Assembly: GCA_963729715.1 (NCBI GenBank) | Contig: CAVSPA010000006.1 | Location: 320,001 to 384,000, forward strand | Length of the DNA: 64,000 bases | Direction of reading: 5' to 3' | Origin: an uncultured delta proteobacterium | GTDB taxonomy: Bacteria; Desulfobacterota; Syntrophia; Syntrophales; UBA2185 | Shown here: positions 2,910 to 26,097 of the stretch, one piece after another | Layout of the letters: the number at the start of each line of letters is the position of its first letter | Position numbering within the stretch: the stretch's first letter is position 1 | Made by a program: the position numbers and the translations under genes | Notes under the pieces: model-generated | What the model was told of the DNA's origin: nothing | Database searches by the model: none | Seen by the model: only the letters and a program-made list of their open reading frames with translations

Positions 2910-3503
2910 CTACTCATTTTTTTTGAGAGCTTCTTCGACCGGGGTGAGACGCGACACGATACTCCGGGAAAAGATTATTGCGAGGAGTATCGAAGGAAGG
3001 ACGATGATGAACAGCGTCAGGTATATGACATGATACAGTTGATTAAGAGACTCCGTGACTTCTGCAAGCGGACGGGCCAGCCGGACGTAACCCTTGACCG
3101 CAGTGTTATCTTTGATGGGAAGGGCGACATAGAGCATACTTTCCTGAAGCGTTGCACTGAATCGCGCAGCTTTGCCATAGCCCGTTGTCGCGGCTTGCTG
3201 TATTTCGGGACGGTTCAGGTGATTATCCATTTTTGCCGCATCTGCCTGGGAATCCGATATGACCTGTCCTGACTGATCGATTAGCGTCACCCGCATGTTT
3301 GACTCTTTGGCAATTTCCGGAACATGACGTGCAATGTTTTCCTCGGGCATAAGGGTGATGATCCTTGCTATGCCTGACATTTCATTCTCGATGTTCTGAG
3401 TAACTATGTCACGGATCTTCGGGGTGAGAAAAAAGTCCAGGACGGCGACCATCAGAAAGACCAGGATCAGATACGAGGAGAATATTGCTAAGAATCGTTT
3501 CAT
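2910..3503 (-). CDS. Stand-alone PhoR-like membrane sensor domain (TM-periplasmic-TM), no kinase core
   Basis: Colinear with the N-terminus of PhoR at 24334-26097 (RVTLID..G.V..DS, MD.HLNRPEIQ.A, MLY.A.P, GY.R.ARPL.EV). Ends shortly after TM2. SD AGGGGG upstream. Confidence 0.8.
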   Translation of the reverse strand: MKRFLAIFSSYLILVFLMVAVLDFFLTPKIRDIVTQNIENEMSGIARIITLMPEENIARHVPEIAKESNMRVTLIDQSGQVISDSQADAAKMDNHLNRPEIQQAATTGYGKAARFSATLQESMLYVALPIKDNTAVKGYVRLARPLAEVTESLNQLYHVIYLTLFIIVLPSILLAIIFSRSIVSRLTPVEEALKKNE

Positions 3504-5285: not shown

Positions 5286-6170
5286 ATGAAAATCAATTCT
5301 AAACATTTCCTGGTCCCGGCAGGAGAAAAAGTCAAACTCAAACGGTGGCCGACTCTGGTCAAGCCCTGCTACAAGTCAAAGGAGCACTATAAGGAAATCC
5401 TGGCTGAACACATCTCGGAACTGAGTGAGCTGCAGAGTCTGCTCTATGCTTACAATCGTTATTCGGTGCTGCTGGTTTTTCAAGGCATGGACGCCGCCGG
5501 TAAAGACAGCGCCATCAAACACGTGATGTCCGGCGTGAATCCGCAAGGCTGCGAGGTTTTCACTTTCAAGCAGCCGAGTGATGAAGACCTGAAGCACGAT
5601 TTTCTATGGCGCGCGATTTGCCGTCTGCCCGAACGCGGTCGGATCGGCATCTTCAACCGTTCCTATTACGAAGAAGTGCTGATCGTTCGTGTGCATCCGC
5701 AAATTCTTCACGACGAAGGGCTACCGGATGATTTGCCGGACGAAAAGACGATTTGGGAGGAGCGGTATCGTTCCATCGTGGACTTGGAGAAGCATCTCCA
5801 CCGCAACGGCACACGGATCGTGAAGTTCTTCCTTCACCTGTCGAAGAACGAGCAGCGAAAGCGATTCCTCGAGCGCATTGATGAGCCGGGAAAAAACTGG
5901 AAATTCAGCCTCTCGGACATTAACGAGAGGAACTACTGGAAGCATTACATGAAGGCTTATGAGGCTTGCCTTACCGCGACAAGCACCGATCACGCGCCCT
6001 GGCACGTCGTTCCCGCCGATGACAAGGAGAATGCACGGTTGATTATTTCCCAGATTTTCCTTGATGCGCTCAATGAACTTAAGATGGCATATCCCAAGAC
6101 CACCGCGAAACGTCGGCGTGAACTGAAATCTATTCGCAAACTGCTTTCAACACAAGACCATGACCAATAA
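5286..6170 (+). CDS. ppk2: Polyphosphate kinase 2, single domain (class III-like polyP:nucleotide phosphotransferase)
   Basis: Walker [10 protein letters not shown], Walker B FNRSYYE, lid K.WKFS..D..ER, W..VPAD.K. Confidence 0.93.
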
Positions 6171-6193
6171 ACAAACGTCGCCGATTTTTTTTC

Positions 6194-6499
6194 CTATCGT
6201 TCCATGCCGATATCATACCCGAGCTTTGTCTCCTTTTCTCGGAGTTTTCGGATTGCTTTCCTGAAGTGCACATACCGCCTCGCCGATTCGACTATGAGAA
6301 GGACGCCCAGGATAATAAAGACCAGCCCTGCGCAAAAATAGAAGAGACCGCTCAGAAACTTCATTACAGCGAGACCTACGGATGTGAAGGCCAGGCCTGT
6401 CTGCATGTATGAATGCATGGTCCTCTCGCGTGAGAGGAGGGTTTGTTCCTCCATGAGGAGCAGTTTGATATCGCCGTTGCTCTCCGTATCGCGCACCAT
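6194..6499 (-). CDS. DUF202 (YidH-like) small membrane protein
   Basis: LSRERTMHSYMQTGLA motif followed by two TM helices. Confidence 0.75.
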   Translation of the reverse strand: MVRDTESNGDIKLLLMEEQTLLSRERTMHSYMQTGLAFTSVGLAVMKFLSGLFYFCAGLVFIILGVLLIVESARRYVHFRKAIRKLREKETKLGYDIGMER

Positions 6500-6607
6500 C
6501 CTTTCAATTTCAGATATTTATTTCATAAAGAATAAAATCCGAAATTACCTGCCTACCGAAGCCTCGAAAGAGCGGAGTTCGGTCGGGTGAATTAGTAGAC
6601 GTTTAAC

Positions 6608-7054
6608 TCAAATTCTTTCATCAAGTTTGTTCATTAATAGGCTCGCCAGGTAAATTAAGTGTTTAGCTCCCCTCTCTTTGAGGTCTAAATTATGATGGGC
6701 CTTGGGGTTTCTTATACCAATCATGGCCCCCGCAAAAATTACCATGTATCCTTCTTGGATATTTCGCCCAGATTCAGTGGAAAGATCATCAAGAACGATT
6801 AGAGGATTACTGGGCGAAAAGGCTGTACGCATAAGCGATGCGCCGTCTAATTCTCTGTTAATCTTTCTTCTAACAATCTCTTTAACACAATTGTGCACCT
6901 CTTTTAGGGCTGCTTCAACGGCATCTGTATAATGCAAGCTTTCATAGCGACTCTTGGCCACAGAAGCTATTTTGGGATGAATGTCATCACAAAAATTATC
7001 TGGTAAAATTTCCCCCTCAATATCTCGACCAATGTCTTCTTGTTTTTCTTCCAC
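6608..7054 (-). CDS. TIGR02391 / Hypoth_Ymh family protein (HEPN-like)
   Basis: DAVEAA.K, DGASLM..AFS...P, Q.GYM..FAGAM.GIRNPKAH with RxxxxH motif; GTG start after AGGA. Confidence 0.8.
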   Translation of the reverse strand: MEEKQEDIGRDIEGEILPDNFCDDIHPKIASVAKSRYESLHYTDAVEAALKEVHNCVKEIVRRKINRELDGASLMRTAFSPSNPLIVLDDLSTESGRNIQEGYMVIFAGAMIGIRNPKAHHNLDLKERGAKHLIYLASLLMNKLDERI

Positions 7055-7092
7055 AATTCCTATGAGCGACTGCGATTTAATAATTGCCTCCT

Positions 7093-7686
7093 TTATGCCT
7101 TTTCTATACCCCTTGCGGATAAGATGACCTCTATACGGTCATGAATGGTCACCGCTGTTCTCAAAGCAAGAGCAAAGGACTTGAAAATTGCCTCTGCAAT
7201 ATGATGGTTATTCTCACCATAAAGAAGATTGATGTGCAAGGTCATTCCACTATTGTTTGAAAAAGATTCAAAAAATTTCTTTATCAGCGAGTAGTCGATT
7301 TCGCTGGCTTTATTGCTTTTGAACTTGACATTGTAAATCAGGCAGGGTCGTCCCGAAAGATCTATAACGACTTCGCACAGGCTTTCATCCATCGGAATGA
7401 CAGCAGTTCCGTAACGGGTTATCCCTTTCTTGTCACCGATAGATTCTTTAACGGCGTCGCCAAGACATATCCCAATATCCGCGATCAATCGATGATCATC
7501 TGTGTCTTTATGAACCTTGCTTCTTATGACCAGATCCATGAGAGCATGCCTCGCAAAGAGGGTAAGCATATGATCCATAAAAGGTATTGTTGTGGATATA
7601 TTGCCATTACCTGCACCATCGAGGCTTATATCTATGGAGATATTCGTCGCGGTTGTTCTCCTGTTTATTCTTGCCTTGCGCTTCAT
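7093..7686 (-). CDS. Imidazoleglycerol-phosphate dehydratase (HisB)-like protein with degenerate first metal motif
   Basis: FMDHML, GDKKGITRYG, PMDE, DLSGRP and NNHHIAEAIFK match IGPD, but DxHHxxED is replaced by DDHRLIAD. Confidence 0.85.
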   Translation of the reverse strand: MKRKARINRRTTATNISIDISLDGAGNGNISTTIPFMDHMLTLFARHALMDLVIRSKVHKDTDDHRLIADIGICLGDAVKESIGDKKGITRYGTAVIPMDESLCEVVIDLSGRPCLIYNVKFKSNKASEIDYSLIKKFFESFSNNSGMTLHINLLYGENNHHIAEAIFKSFALALRTAVTIHDRIEVILSARGIEKA

Positions 7687-8069
7687 TATCCATGTGCCTC
7701 TCGAATCAATTTATTCAATGGTTCGGGAATTATAATCTCTAACATTACATATGTTTTTTTTGACTAACACGATTTATATGAGAAATCTACTATGAATCGA
7801 CAAATCACAGCGCATGATTCAGGAAGGAGCAAGCGCTTCATCCTCCTTCCTTGTCAACGCACCTGAAAGCACCTGAAAATTGCCCGCTATCTATTGAAGT
7901 CGAGATTTTTGGGAAAAAGCTTTCCTCTCGTAATGCGCACGAGTGATCAATTGATAAGGACACATTTCATCGTTGGGAAACTATAATTGCCGAGAGGGAA
8001 ACAAGAGATGCTTTAACAGCTATGAATCACATGAAATTATATCAAAGAATCCGCAGGCCTGCCTTAATT

Positions 8070-8123
8070 GTCACAAGCTCTTAACACAACCATAATAAAA
8101 TCTTAACAAAATGCATGTACAAT
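8070..8123 (+). promoter_or_regulatory. Pho-box-like four-unit direct repeat plus -10 element
   Basis: GTCACA(8070), TTAACA(8081), ATAATA(8092), TTAACA(8103) at exact 11-bp period; TACAAT at 8118-8123. Confidence 0.7.
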
Positions 8124-8156
8124 AGTTATCTGAAAGAAGATTATCGGAGATTACAT

Positions 8157-9650
8157 ATGAGAGAGTGGATGAAAAGATTGGCTCTGCACTATGAGAGAGT
8201 AAAGTATCTGCAGCCGGAAGACAAGCTGATGATCCTTTTCGATATCGATGGCACTATCCTGGATATGCGATGCATGATTTTATATGTTCTCCAATCCTTT
8301 GACTATCACCATGGGACATGCTTCTTTGAAGGTATGAAGAGTAGCGATATTACAATTCATGAAACAGAAGTTAATAAACTTCTCGACGAGCTGGCAATTC
8401 CTATGGATCAGAGGGCCGATATTGTTGATTGGTATGAAAAGAAATTCTGGTCTAATGAGGCGATGCTTGAAGCACACAGGCCTTTCGCAGGCGTGATGGA
8501 GGTCATACGGTGGTTCCAAATGCAGCCGAACACATATGTTGGCCTGAATACAGGCAGACCGGAATATATGAGAATGGACACGCTTCGCTCACTTAACAAA
8601 ATCGGCCAAGAATACAAGGTGGAATTCAGTAACAGCCTGCTCTACATGATGAATCCATATGGATCGGACAGGGAAATTACCACCTCTAAAGTTGCGGGAA
8701 TTCTCCATTTTCAGAAATCAGGTTATCGCATATTTGCCTATATAGACAATGAACCGGAGAATTTAAAGGCTATATCCGAACTTGACCCGCGGAAACAGAT
8801 TCTCCTGCTTCATGCCAATACACTGTTTAAATCGAAGCGCAGGAAATTACCTTCCCACGCCGTGAGCGGAAAACGATACGACCTTACCGAGTTGATTTAT
8901 GAAAGAGCACTTCCGCAACACGTGCAATTTGTCTGGCACGGCGTTAATGACGAAGGAAACCTGAGACAGTTCCTTATCTCAAATATCCGCTGGGCGGAGT
9001 GCGATATTCGTCTGGACCCGAAACGGGAACACATCGTTGTTCGTGACGATTCATTCGAATCTACACCTATTCAGGAAGATGAAGTTCTTCTTCCACTAAA
9101 TGATATCTTGGACGCGTTTAAGGAGTCAAGGAAATCTATCAAACTCGATTTAAAGGAAAATGGGTTTCTCTTGAACAAGACATTGTCGCTCCTCGGAAAT
9201 CATTCTTTCGATGCTGCAGCCCTATGGTTCAACGGAAGGATTGAAGTGCTGAAGGAGGAAGGCTTTTGTAAACTGGCGGAAGCTTACCCTATGTCGATCA
9301 TACAATGCCCTATTGATTATCTTGTCCCCCTTATCTTAAGTGTTCCTAATAAAGCCTTGGCCATTCTTGATATGTTTAAAGATTGGGGGATTAACCGCTT
9401 TTCCATCAGTTGGAATACTACAAACATCAGTCATATCCTTGGTAAATTGGATAAATGGGGCTTTGATGCAAATATCTACAACGTGCCCGACCTGGGATCA
9501 TTTTTGCGAGCCGTCCTCCTCCAGCCAAAGTCAATTACATCAGATTTCAATTTTCCCAAGTGGCAATATTACGGGAGGGGATCGGGGCAGAACCAAAGAC
9601 GGCATGTATATTCGATCGCTAACATCTCTCATGGCCTTTCGTTGTCATAG
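8157..9650 (+). CDS. HAD-superfamily phosphatase fused to a menorin/DUF2181 (PLC-like/GDPD-like phosphodiesterase) domain
   Basis: HAD motifs FDIDGT, NTGR, K, IDNEPEN. C-terminal WHGVN...AECDIR...SIKLDLK...WFNG. ATG 8157 has SD GGAG (the ORF track starts at 8115). Confidence 0.72.
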   Translation: MREWMKRLALHYERVKYLQPEDKLMILFDIDGTILDMRCMILYVLQSFDYHHGTCFFEGMKSSDITIHETEVNKLLDELAIPMDQRADIVDWYEKKFWSNEAMLEAHRPFAGVMEVIRWFQMQPNTYVGLNTGRPEYMRMDTLRSLNKIGQEYKVEFSNSLLYMMNPYGSDREITTSKVAGILHFQKSGYRIFAYIDNEPENLKAISELDPRKQILLLHANTLFKSKRRKLPSHAVSGKRYDLTELIYERALPQHVQFVWHGVNDEGNLRQFLISNIRWAECDIRLDPKREHIVVRDDSFESTPIQEDEVLLPLNDILDAFKESRKSIKLDLKENGFLLNKTLSLLGNHSFDAAALWFNGRIEVLKEEGFCKLAEAYPMSIIQCPIDYLVPLILSVPNKALAILDMFKDWGINRFSISWNTTNISHILGKLDKWGFDANIYNVPDLGSFLRAVLLQPKSITSDFNFPKWQYYGRGSGQNQRRHVYSIANISHGLSLS

Positions 9651-24333: not shown

Positions 24334-26097
24334 TTGAAGAACCGCCTATTATACAGGATTTCCGCCGGCTATGTCGCGCTGATACTCGTAACCGCCATAG
24401 TCATGGGATTGATGTATGCCCGGCAGATCAAGACTGAATTAATAGACGGGATTAAGAATGACCTGATTGCTCAAGCACGAATCGCCGCATTATTAGGGAT
24501 TAGCGATATAGCAAGGAACTCGTCACATCTGGCCGATATATCCCGCTCCCGTGTTACCCTGATTGATGCCACGGGCCGGGTCAAAGCGGATTCAGAGAAA
24601 GACTTGGGGCAGATGGATAGTCACCTGAACCGGCCGGAAATACAGGAAGCGAGGATCAAGGGACAGGGGGATGCTATTCGTTACAGCCGTACACTTGGTG
24701 TAGACATGCTCTACATCGCCTTTCCGGTTACAGAAGGCTCTGAAGTTACGGGTTACATACGATTTGCCCGCCCGCTATTCGAAGTTAGAAAATCCATTGA
24801 TCAGCAGTACACCTATATTTATAAGTGTCTGCTGATCGCCATCATTCCTGCCTTCATCATCGCATTTCTTTTGGCGAGAAAACTGATATCGCCAATCGAG
24901 AAAGTAATTTCATATACACACAAGGTTTGTAGCGGTGAGGCATCAGGAACACTTCTGATTGAGTCAAATGATGATGTCGGGCAACTGGAAAAAGACATCA
25001 ATCGCATGGTGCTTGAAAATCAGGAAAGGGTGAGGGTTGCCGATCAGGAGAAGGCGAAACTTGAAGCGGCCTTTGCCAGCATGACGGAGGGAGTTCTTGT
25101 AATCAACAATCAGAACCGCATCGAGTTTCTCAACAAGAGTCTGGAAACGATCCTCGGGGACGAAGGCATCACTGACATCCTGGATAAGACGCCGCTTGAG
25201 GCATTCAGGAATGTGGAGCTGCAGGATGCACTTGACTCATTCAGAGAATCCGGAGGACCTGTGTTCCGTGAGATCAGCCTCGGACAGGAAGCGCCGGTTA
25301 TCCTCGATGTCACCATATCAGCCATTCATGGACTGCCGGAAGGGAAACAAAAGACGATGATGGTATTTCACGACGTCACGCGTCTTAAGAAACTGGAAAA
25401 GATACGAGAGGACTTCGTGGCTAATGTTACCCACGAGATCAAGACACCACTTACGGCAATCATAGGATTTATTGAGACCCTTGAGGACGGCGCCATCAAT
25501 GACGAAGCAACGGCGAAAAAATTTCTTCACATAGTTTCCGAGAATGCCCATCGCCTTGGAAGGCTGGTGGATGATCTGCTGGTTCTTTCCAGCATCGAGC
25601 TGGGAGAGATGAAATTGAGGATCGAAAATATCTCCGTAGCCGATGCCATCGAGAACGTGTTGTCCATGTTCGAGACGAAAGCGGCGGATAAATCCCTCGC
25701 TATTGATAAAAATATTTCCGATAGACTCCCTTTCATCAAGGTAGACAGGGATAAATTCGCACAGATTCTTGTGAACATCCTCGATAATGCCATCAAATTT
25801 ACGCCAAGTGGCGGAAAGATTTACATTTCTGCGCGCCAAGATGAAAATGGTTTTGTGGTCATCAAAGTGATCGACACGGGGGTAGGTATACCAAAAAATG
25901 AAATTCCCAGGCTTGGAGAACGGTTCTATCGGGTGGACAAGGCACGTTCGCGGGAGTTGGGAGGCACCGGTCTGGGTTTGTCAATAGTGAAACATCTCAT
26001 GAAGGCCCATAAAGGCAGCATCGATATCGAAAGTCAGGTGGGAAGAGGTACAACGATTTCTCTCACTTTTCCCCAGAATGGGATCCCGAAAACATAA
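24334..26097 (+). CDS. phoR: Phosphate regulon sensor histidine kinase
   Basis: TM-sensor-TM-HAMP-PAS; DFVANVTHEIKTPLT, NILDNAIK, ERFYRVDKARSR..GGTGLGL; directly follows phoU; TTG start. Confidence 0.9.
   Translation: MKNRLLYRISAGYVALILVTAIVMGLMYARQIKTELIDGIKNDLIAQARIAALLGISDIARNSSHLADISRSRVTLIDATGRVKADSEKDLGQMDSHLNRPEIQEARIKGQGDAIRYSRTLGVDMLYIAFPVTEGSEVTGYIRFARPLFEVRKSIDQQYTYIYKCLLIAIIPAFIIAFLLARKLISPIEKVISYTHKVCSGEASGTLLIESNDDVGQLEKDINRMVLENQERVRVADQEKAKLEAAFASMTEGVLVINNQNRIEFLNKSLETILGDEGITDILDKTPLEAFRNVELQDALDSFRESGGPVFREISLGQEAPVILDVTISAIHGLPEGKQKTMMVFHDVTRLKKLEKIREDFVANVTHEIKTPLTAIIGFIETLEDGAINDEATAKKFLHIVSENAHRLGRLVDDLLVLSSIELGEMKLRIENISVADAIENVLSMFETKAADKSLAIDKNISDRLPFIKVDRDKFAQILVNILDNAIKFTPSGGKIYISARQDENGFVVIKVIDTGVGIPKNEIPRLGERFYRVDKARSRELGGTGLGLSIVKHLMKAHKGSIDIESQVGRGTTISLTFPQNGIPKT

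Follow-up and report, generated by a model that had tools for sequence, protein, structure and literature searches.

A full-length HisB paralogue beside a polyphosphate gene cluster, predicted to be inactive, belongs to a clade with repeated loss of ligands on one metal face

The 64,000-nt stretch of Syntrophales DNA analysed here (the window; genome G000) carries, in addition to the hisB gene of its genome, a gene that we term hisB2 (7093..7686, minus strand). HisB2 is a full-length, 197-aa, IGPD-fold paralogue by its open reading frame, profile match and predicted structure, and is predicted to be inactive. The sequences of the hisB2 clade establish a repeated loss of motif-1 metal ligands and of the C-loop. 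Our tentatively preferred reading is that hisB2 is a putative dead half-site subunit that docks via Mn on canonical HisB.

The PF00475 profile assigns hisB2 a score of 192 bits, against a cut-off of 27, and the protein has the duplicated beta-beta-beta-alpha-beta-alpha fold of that family. The AlphaFold model, calculated from a 97-sequence alignment, has a pLDDT of 92.6 and a TM-score of 0.95 to IGPD 6FWH. The gene is flanked on one side by genes for PPK2, DUF202 and TIGR02391 proteins and on the other side by HAD-like, PhoH, Ppx, PPK2 and PPK1 genes, and no his gene is present among its neighbours in this phosphate/polyphosphate cluster. The profile score, the TM-score and the absence of a his neighbour confirm the statement in a preliminary description of the window, made from its letters, that a full-length IGPD fold is encoded here outside a his operon. 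A Shine-Dalgarno-like site, GAGAGG, is located upstream of the gene at 7697-7702 and is kept as well in G008, the second genome that carries hisB2. An assembly or binning artefact was considered and rejected, since both hisB copies are on contig C6, since a low-depth contig of sequencing run X4 (possibly related to the source sample) covers 7451-7678 with 0 differing letters, and since A13 and R66 are found in relatives too.

Alignment with Arabidopsis IGPD2 (At; numbering offset 8) places hisB2 residues A13, R66, A69 and K137 at the positions of At E21, H74, E77 and H145, and reveals that H39, H47, H65, R91, R113, H161, H162, E165, K169 and S190 are retained. The altered motifs named in the preliminary description are all present, namely TTAT (A13), DDHRLIAD (R66, A69), KKFF (K137) and SARG (A191, R192), as are the motifs that it listed as retained, RYG, SGRP and NNHHIAEAIFK. 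Specifically, codon 13 (7648..7650, on the minus strand like the features that follow) encodes Ala in place of the catalytic Glu (At E21, chain A); codons 58-70 (7477..7515) encode an eroded motif-1 loop and helix, VHKDTDDHRLIAD, in which the chain A' ligands At H74 and E77 are replaced by Arg and Ala; codon 137 (7276..7278) encodes Lys in place of Glu at the position of the chain A' Mn2 ligand At H145, a position occupied by K, R, G or E in the clade sequences; codons 159-169 (7180..7212) encode an intact motif 2, NNHHIAEAIFK, which together with H39 and H47 forms the retained chain-A face; and 7093..7119 encode a modified C-loop and tail (SARGIEKA), the latter apparently rearranged. Sequence matching the tail is found downstream of hisB2 in G008, suggesting that the native stop of the window's hisB2 was likely lost through a small deletion.

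Of the residues expected of a dehydratase, the first (D/N)xHHxxE motif is broken (DDHRLIA), and the second is present together with the H47 equivalent, with H39, H161, H162 and E165 found in 7/7 clade sequences. The catalytic Glu is replaced by A13 in 7/7 clade sequences, whereas E13, and likewise H66, E69 and E137, is found in 129/129 close canonical HisBs. The fourth Mn2 ligand (At H145; Glu in the HisBs of hisB2's family) is replaced by K137. The C-loop Ser/Lys motif, STKG, reads SARG in the window, is absent from 3/5 lineages and is intact only in the P0002 lineage; the C-loop is missing in P0003, P0004/P0125 and P0005 (4/7 clade sequences). The GDT loop is also altered in hisB2. Among 149 distant representatives, E13 is present in 147 and H66 and E69 in 148 each; position 137 is more variable (E or H in 128, D in 16, V in 3, A in 1, Q in 1), and K or R is found there in none of the 149, with D, V, A or Q in 21. 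The homologues of hisB2 share its substitutions in part: A13, K60 and R66 are common to the relatives, and A69, K137 and the ARG tail occur solely in the sublineage of the window.

PMC4509728 (legend and supplement) describes an IGPD active site built from three chains, in which chain A supplies E21, H47, H55, H170, E173 and K177, chain A' supplies H73, H74, E77 and H145, and chain C supplies R99 and R121, with four protein ligands per Mn; PMC10978614 agrees with this assignment. H169 was treated as a chain A residue, being on the same helix as H170A and E173A; one label in the PMC4509728 supplement reads His169A'. Against this scheme, the proposed loss of metal ligands holds for three of the eight Mn ligands (At H74, E77 and H145) and fails for the other five, which are kept, and E13 does not belong among them: At E21 is described in PMC4509728 as the catalytic acid/base and not as a metal ligand.

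In the same paper, At IGPD2 E21Q has no activity above background and deletion of the C-loop abolishes IGPD activity. With Ala at the E21 position in 7/7 clade sequences and E21Q abolishing activity in a homologue, hisB2 is, by established knowledge, very likely catalytically dead. The preliminary description had reached the same view, which is well supported inferentially by the effects of the two lesions in homologues and by the presence of a canonical hisB in the genome. Residual IGP dehydratase activity in hisB2 is accordingly most improbable: the protein keeps the fold and scores above two NCBIfam HisB equivalog cut-offs (NF002111 and NF002114), but E21Q is inactive, three Mn ligands are lost, and HHxxE is present in all 535 of the 535 IGPDs aligned in PMC7284861.

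Canonical hisB, which the preliminary description had suggested seeking elsewhere in the genome, was located on the same contig, C6, 100 kb from hisB2. The host genome has two IGPD genes, both on C6, and the canonical one (G000:C6:223958-224536) encodes a protein 68% identical to hisB2. It is part of a cluster hisI-hisG-hisB-lipoprotein-hisA (gene names assigned from the ORF sequences); the host genome also contains HisA/HisF-family and HisD genes, and a canonical hisB partner is present in both hisB2 genomes, G000 and G008. The lipoprotein-like gene of this cluster (L035:10543-11283, on G000:C6) overlaps the canonical hisB stop and separates hisB from hisA, an arrangement seen in G000, G008, G010 and G012.

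The 35 nt upstream of hisB2 (7687..7721, minus strand) correspond to the 3' end of hisG and the hisG-hisB spacer of canonical loci, marking the 5' edge of a duplicated segment and indicating that hisB2 is a segmental copy of hisB with a hisG tail. In a 46-protein tree, the seven full-length hisB2 copies form one clade (100/99) that comprises five lineages and is nested inside the hisB of the family. This sequence evidence establishes a single origin of the hisB2 clade by segmental copy, with the catalytic Glu lost before the lineages split. In a 30-row DNA tree, hisB2 copies lie outside the canonical hisB clade of the genus, and nucleotide identity is 73% to host hisB and up to 77% to the hisB of other genera. 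Since hisB2 is thus no closer to host hisB than to that of other genera and lies outside the genus clade, its origin is, as read from the trees and identities, old or lateral.

The clade is small. Protein searches returned four relatives at 79-82% identity (P0002-P0005) and a few cluster members, and the nearest relatives are named Syntrophales or Syntrophaceae in their sources. A profile search recovered these four clusters again, with scores of 390-399 bits followed by a drop to 351, with no addition among the best 120 matches, below which copies ending before about residue 160 would rank. Scans of genome contigs and of metagenomes returned at least 80 loci each, with best identities among the matches listed of 70% and 74%, which is the canonical range. 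A six-frame search of 339 genomes of the order, reading through stops, identified hisB2 in two, G000 and G008 (at least 390 bits; next match 346), and hisB2 is absent from 9/11 genus genomes searched. Second IGPD matches in 11 other genomes were examined and rejected: that in G010 is a contig-edge piece of the canonical locus, and the other ten, with scores under 300 bits, do not belong to the hisB2 clade. No independent pseudo-IGPD family with the hisB2 pattern was present among the best 150 of 8039 representatives.

Upstream of hisB2, one copy of a dispersed, non-coding element of about 120 nt (7714..7826, minus strand) is cut off at its junction with the hisG remnant; the element is absent upstream of the G008 copy of hisB2, and the upstream DNA differs between G000 and G008. 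A profile that included two of the genome's own copies gave 15 matches at E<1e-5 in that genome, and copies are present in many family genomes. Most of the 15 matches are located 40-180 nt upstream of a same-strand ORF, and many of these ORFs have, by eye, signal-peptide-like starts. The element contains an inverted pair, GATTT-N7-AAATC, and a hexamer resembling TATAAT/TAAAAT, and the last 8 nt of the window copy nearly match the hisG remnant; an Rfam search over 6000-8300 gave 0 matches. From these features, a shuffled promoter/leader and a cassette-joining site are both possible identities of the element.

The position of hisB2 in a polyphosphate island raises the possibility, narrowed here from an idea of the preliminary description, that the protein is a stand-alone trimer that binds metal (through H39/H161/E165) and phosphate or a phosphate ester (through H47, K169 and R91) in the service of that island. 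The Pi site of IGPD comprises Q51, H55, R99 and K177 in the open form (PMC4509728), to which the closed form adds R121, S199 and K201 (PMC4509728, PMC5113775 and PMC5828572). Two of the four open-form residues, H47 and K169 (At H55 and K177), are invariant in 7/7 clade sequences and speak for such a binder, as does R91 (At R99), kept in 6/7 with Leu in P0003 (G008). R113 (At R121) is kept in 6/7 and is Lys in P0005, together with S111L and P114H, and the Q51-equivalent position is Leu. The earlier claim that the phosphate residues are kept therefore stands for H47 and K169 and falls for R91, R113 and the C-loop, each of which is lost somewhere in the clade; these losses count against a phosphate binder, as does the weak affinity for Pi even of intact IGPD (Ki about 5 mM in PMC4509728). 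A basic, polyphosphate-binding surface was considered and rejected: the pI of hisB2 proteins, 8.4-9.3, is ordinary, lying within the canonical HisB range of 6.2-9.4, and negative charge is lost only in the motif-1 loop.

The genomic evidence for recruitment to the island is likewise mixed. The HAD-like gene is whole in only 2/22 family genomes, G000 and G008, and hisB2 adjoins it in both; the G008 copy occupies the corresponding site, with PPK2 on one side and the HAD-like gene on the other. However, hisB2 is on the strand opposite to the Pho genes, flanking genes at the site come and go, and G015 has a rearranged, related island, with a fragment of the HAD-like gene, from which hisB2 is absent. 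A Pho-box-like pattern has 32 matches against 26.9 expected, with none upstream of hisB2 on its strand. The suggested recruitment is a matter of position, which is the same in both genomes, and a stand-alone metal and phosphate binder is rather unlikely.

Several other features of the island were observed. The HAD-like gene (8115-9650, plus strand) encodes a 511-aa protein with a weak, below-cut-off match to Acid_phosphat_B and no NCBIfam match; its C-terminal half, which is unassigned, looks GDPD-like by eye. At 2910-3503 (minus strand) lies a gene for a 197-aa sCache sensor that stands alone, has no kinase part and has two predicted membrane segments; judged by eye, it is similar to the first, N-terminal half of a PhoR-like kinase (24334-26097) and may be a further truncated paralogue in the island. 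Downstream of hisB2 are the DUF202 and TIGR02391 (Ymh) genes (6194-7054, minus strand). At the G008 site only the DUF202 3' end is present and Ymh is absent, with a full DUF202-like match on another contig; these differences between G000 and G008 indicate that the site by hisB2 is an insertion/deletion hot spot. At the start of G008:C35 (L033:1-270), an ORF unrelated to the island interrupts the phosphate transporter gene, whose other part matches G008:C14; either the DNA is rearranged here or the contig end is chimeric.

Selection on hisB2 is relaxed yet not neutral. Between G000 and G008, the single DNA pair on which the dN/dS of hisB2 is based, dS is 0.35, dN is 0.13 and omega is 0.36, five times that of canonical hisB (0.065) and above that of every other pair among the 13 examined, the 11 others having values of 0.05-0.22. 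In a codon model, omega for hisB2 is 0.357 (95% range about 0.22-0.60), and a likelihood-ratio test rejects 1 (p=1.5e-4) and also 0.065; the neighbouring PPK2 has an omega of 0.27 in the same type of model. Polarisation with outgroups gives 0.39 and 0.28, each lineage being below 1. Since the G000 and G008 copies both carry A13, this purifying selection postdates the loss of catalysis, as expected of a conserved pseudoenzyme (omega 0.36, p=1.5e-4, one pair). A neutral pseudogene, with omega about 1 and a broken frame, is not what the window contains: its frame is open and omega is below 1. The broad, stable retention with intact frames that would mark a conserved pseudoenzyme is also not observed, hisB2 being present in 2/339 genomes, with truncated tails and a probable split copy.

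Signs of decay are present in the clade, each lineage having lost different invariant residues. The G008 copy has a 1-nt frameshift at codon 183, P0004/P0125 and P0005 stop before STKG, and P0122 (residues 1-85) and P0142 (residues 99-197), 92-93% identical to hisB2, are both listed on one 1266-nt NCBI contig and are therefore probably one broken gene, or possibly the product of a sequencing error. The gene appears to be dispensable and to be eroding lineage by lineage. It is possible, and nearly as probable as the half-site reading, that hisB2 is a slowly decaying hisB duplicate with no adaptive function, whose leftover constraint reflects folding or lag. The fivefold elevation of dN/dS, the lineage-specific lesions, the absence from most genus genomes and the differing upstream DNA all favour decay. 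Against it, two copies without the catalytic Glu still differ from each other with a dN/dS significantly below 1, the rate of change at conserved sites is one third of that at variable sites, and the G008 copy is open to codon 182 despite a dS of 0.35. The preliminary description had held that substitutions unique to this genome, under relaxed selection, would mark a decaying duplicate; the relaxed selection is observed, and the substitutions are unique in part, A13, K60 and R66 being shared with relatives and A69, K137 and the ARG tail being confined to the window's sublineage.

The losses are one-sided. Parsimony over residues 3-180 of seven sequences (P0123 and the fragments P0122 and P0142 left out) gives seven changes at the four Mn-ligand sites of the motif-1 face (A') and zero at the four of the motif-2 face (A; p=0.008). 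The contrast is the same on four tree topologies and has p=0.03-0.08 without the variable site 137; the asymmetry was seen before it was tested, and these p-values are post hoc. The rate of change is 0.32 per site at family-invariant positions (79 sites), about a third of that at variable positions (0.98; 47 sites). Relative to the other invariant sites, the A' ligands show an excess of changes (p<0.001). The zero of the A face is below the variable-site rate (p=0.001) and not significantly below the rate of other invariant sites (p about 0.1), such that fold constraint could explain the intact motif-2 face. H162 persists even though the three residues that join it in binding Mn2 belong to the partner's motif-1 face. 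For a decaying duplicate, the one-sided loss would be chance or a way of no longer disturbing the essential HisB cage, and a paralog-interference study (abstract of bioRxiv 10.1101/2025.06.13.659495) offers a mechanism through which leaving the cage could be favoured.

In the half-site reading, the intact motif-2 face of hisB2 would dock through Mn onto the motif-1 face of canonical HisB. Since two chains (A and A') must both contribute ligands to an Mn site, hisB2 alone would be expected to stay a trimer, unable to close the 24-mer; metal-free IGPDs are inactive trimers in PMC10978614 and PMC7284861. The kept face of hisB2, including H162, would then be completed solely by canonical HisB. The hybrid hisB2/HisB site would be inactive, since its catalytic Glu would have to come from the face that hisB2 supplies, and hisB2 would cap or poison HisB cages. 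It is a further and more doubtful step, about as unlikely as a phosphate binder, that hisB2 is a selected cage-capping inhibitor that stops 24-mer growth and so tunes histidine synthesis or Mn use beside the polyphosphate island. Several points weigh against the half-site reading itself: blocking step 6 of histidine synthesis would bring no obvious benefit, hisB2 is rare, one relative is probably split, hisB2 is no closer to host hisB than to that of other genera, and the constancy of motif 2 could be explained by fold constraint.

Comparison with monofunctional HisB/IGPD (PF00475; Arabidopsis IGPD2 4MU0, Acanthamoeba 6FWH and host hisB) reveals a shared fold (TM 0.95), a shared length and, relative to host hisB, 68% identity with motif 2 and the At H47, H55 and K177 equivalents intact. 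HisB2 differs in having Ala at the E21 equivalent, in having lost the H74, E77 and H145 equivalents, in its altered GDT loop and C-loop, in its location outside the his cluster, and in its dN/dS (0.36 versus 0.07). Engineered parallels are also known. In PMC4509728, At IGPD2 E21Q (4MU3/4MU4) lacks the same Glu as the hisB2 clade, and an inactive Pyrococcus delta-C-loop mutant has the same C-loop lesion as 3/5 hisB2 lineages; those mutants, however, retain the two metal faces and assemble or reassemble into 24-mers, whereas the hisB2 clade has also lost the motif-1 face. The paralog-interference work (bioRxiv 10.1101/2025.06.13.659495, abstract) concerns, like hisB2, a homo-oligomer duplicate with loss-of-function changes that affect catalysis and the last step of assembly. 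There, such changes are selected against while the paralogues heteromerise; in hisB2 they are fixed, which implies that the copy escaped, or that interference is tolerated or used.

IGPD is otherwise a near-invariant, single-copy enzyme, for which cooperative regulation has not been reported according to PMC10978614, and the open literature searched, which excludes subscription papers, yielded no paper on an IGPD pseudoenzyme and no description of such a HisB paralogue. HisB2 is an annotation trap, being above NCBIfam HisB cut-offs with the catalytic residue missing. Its general importance is limited by its narrow distribution, in a handful of visibly eroding lineages. Should hisB2 simply be in decay, it would still offer a natural example of a homo-oligomer subunit that, once duplicated, has repeatedly lost one interface. 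If the half-site reading is true, a dead half-site subunit would be the first regulator of IGPD assembly and a natural probe of the trimer-to-24-mer step.
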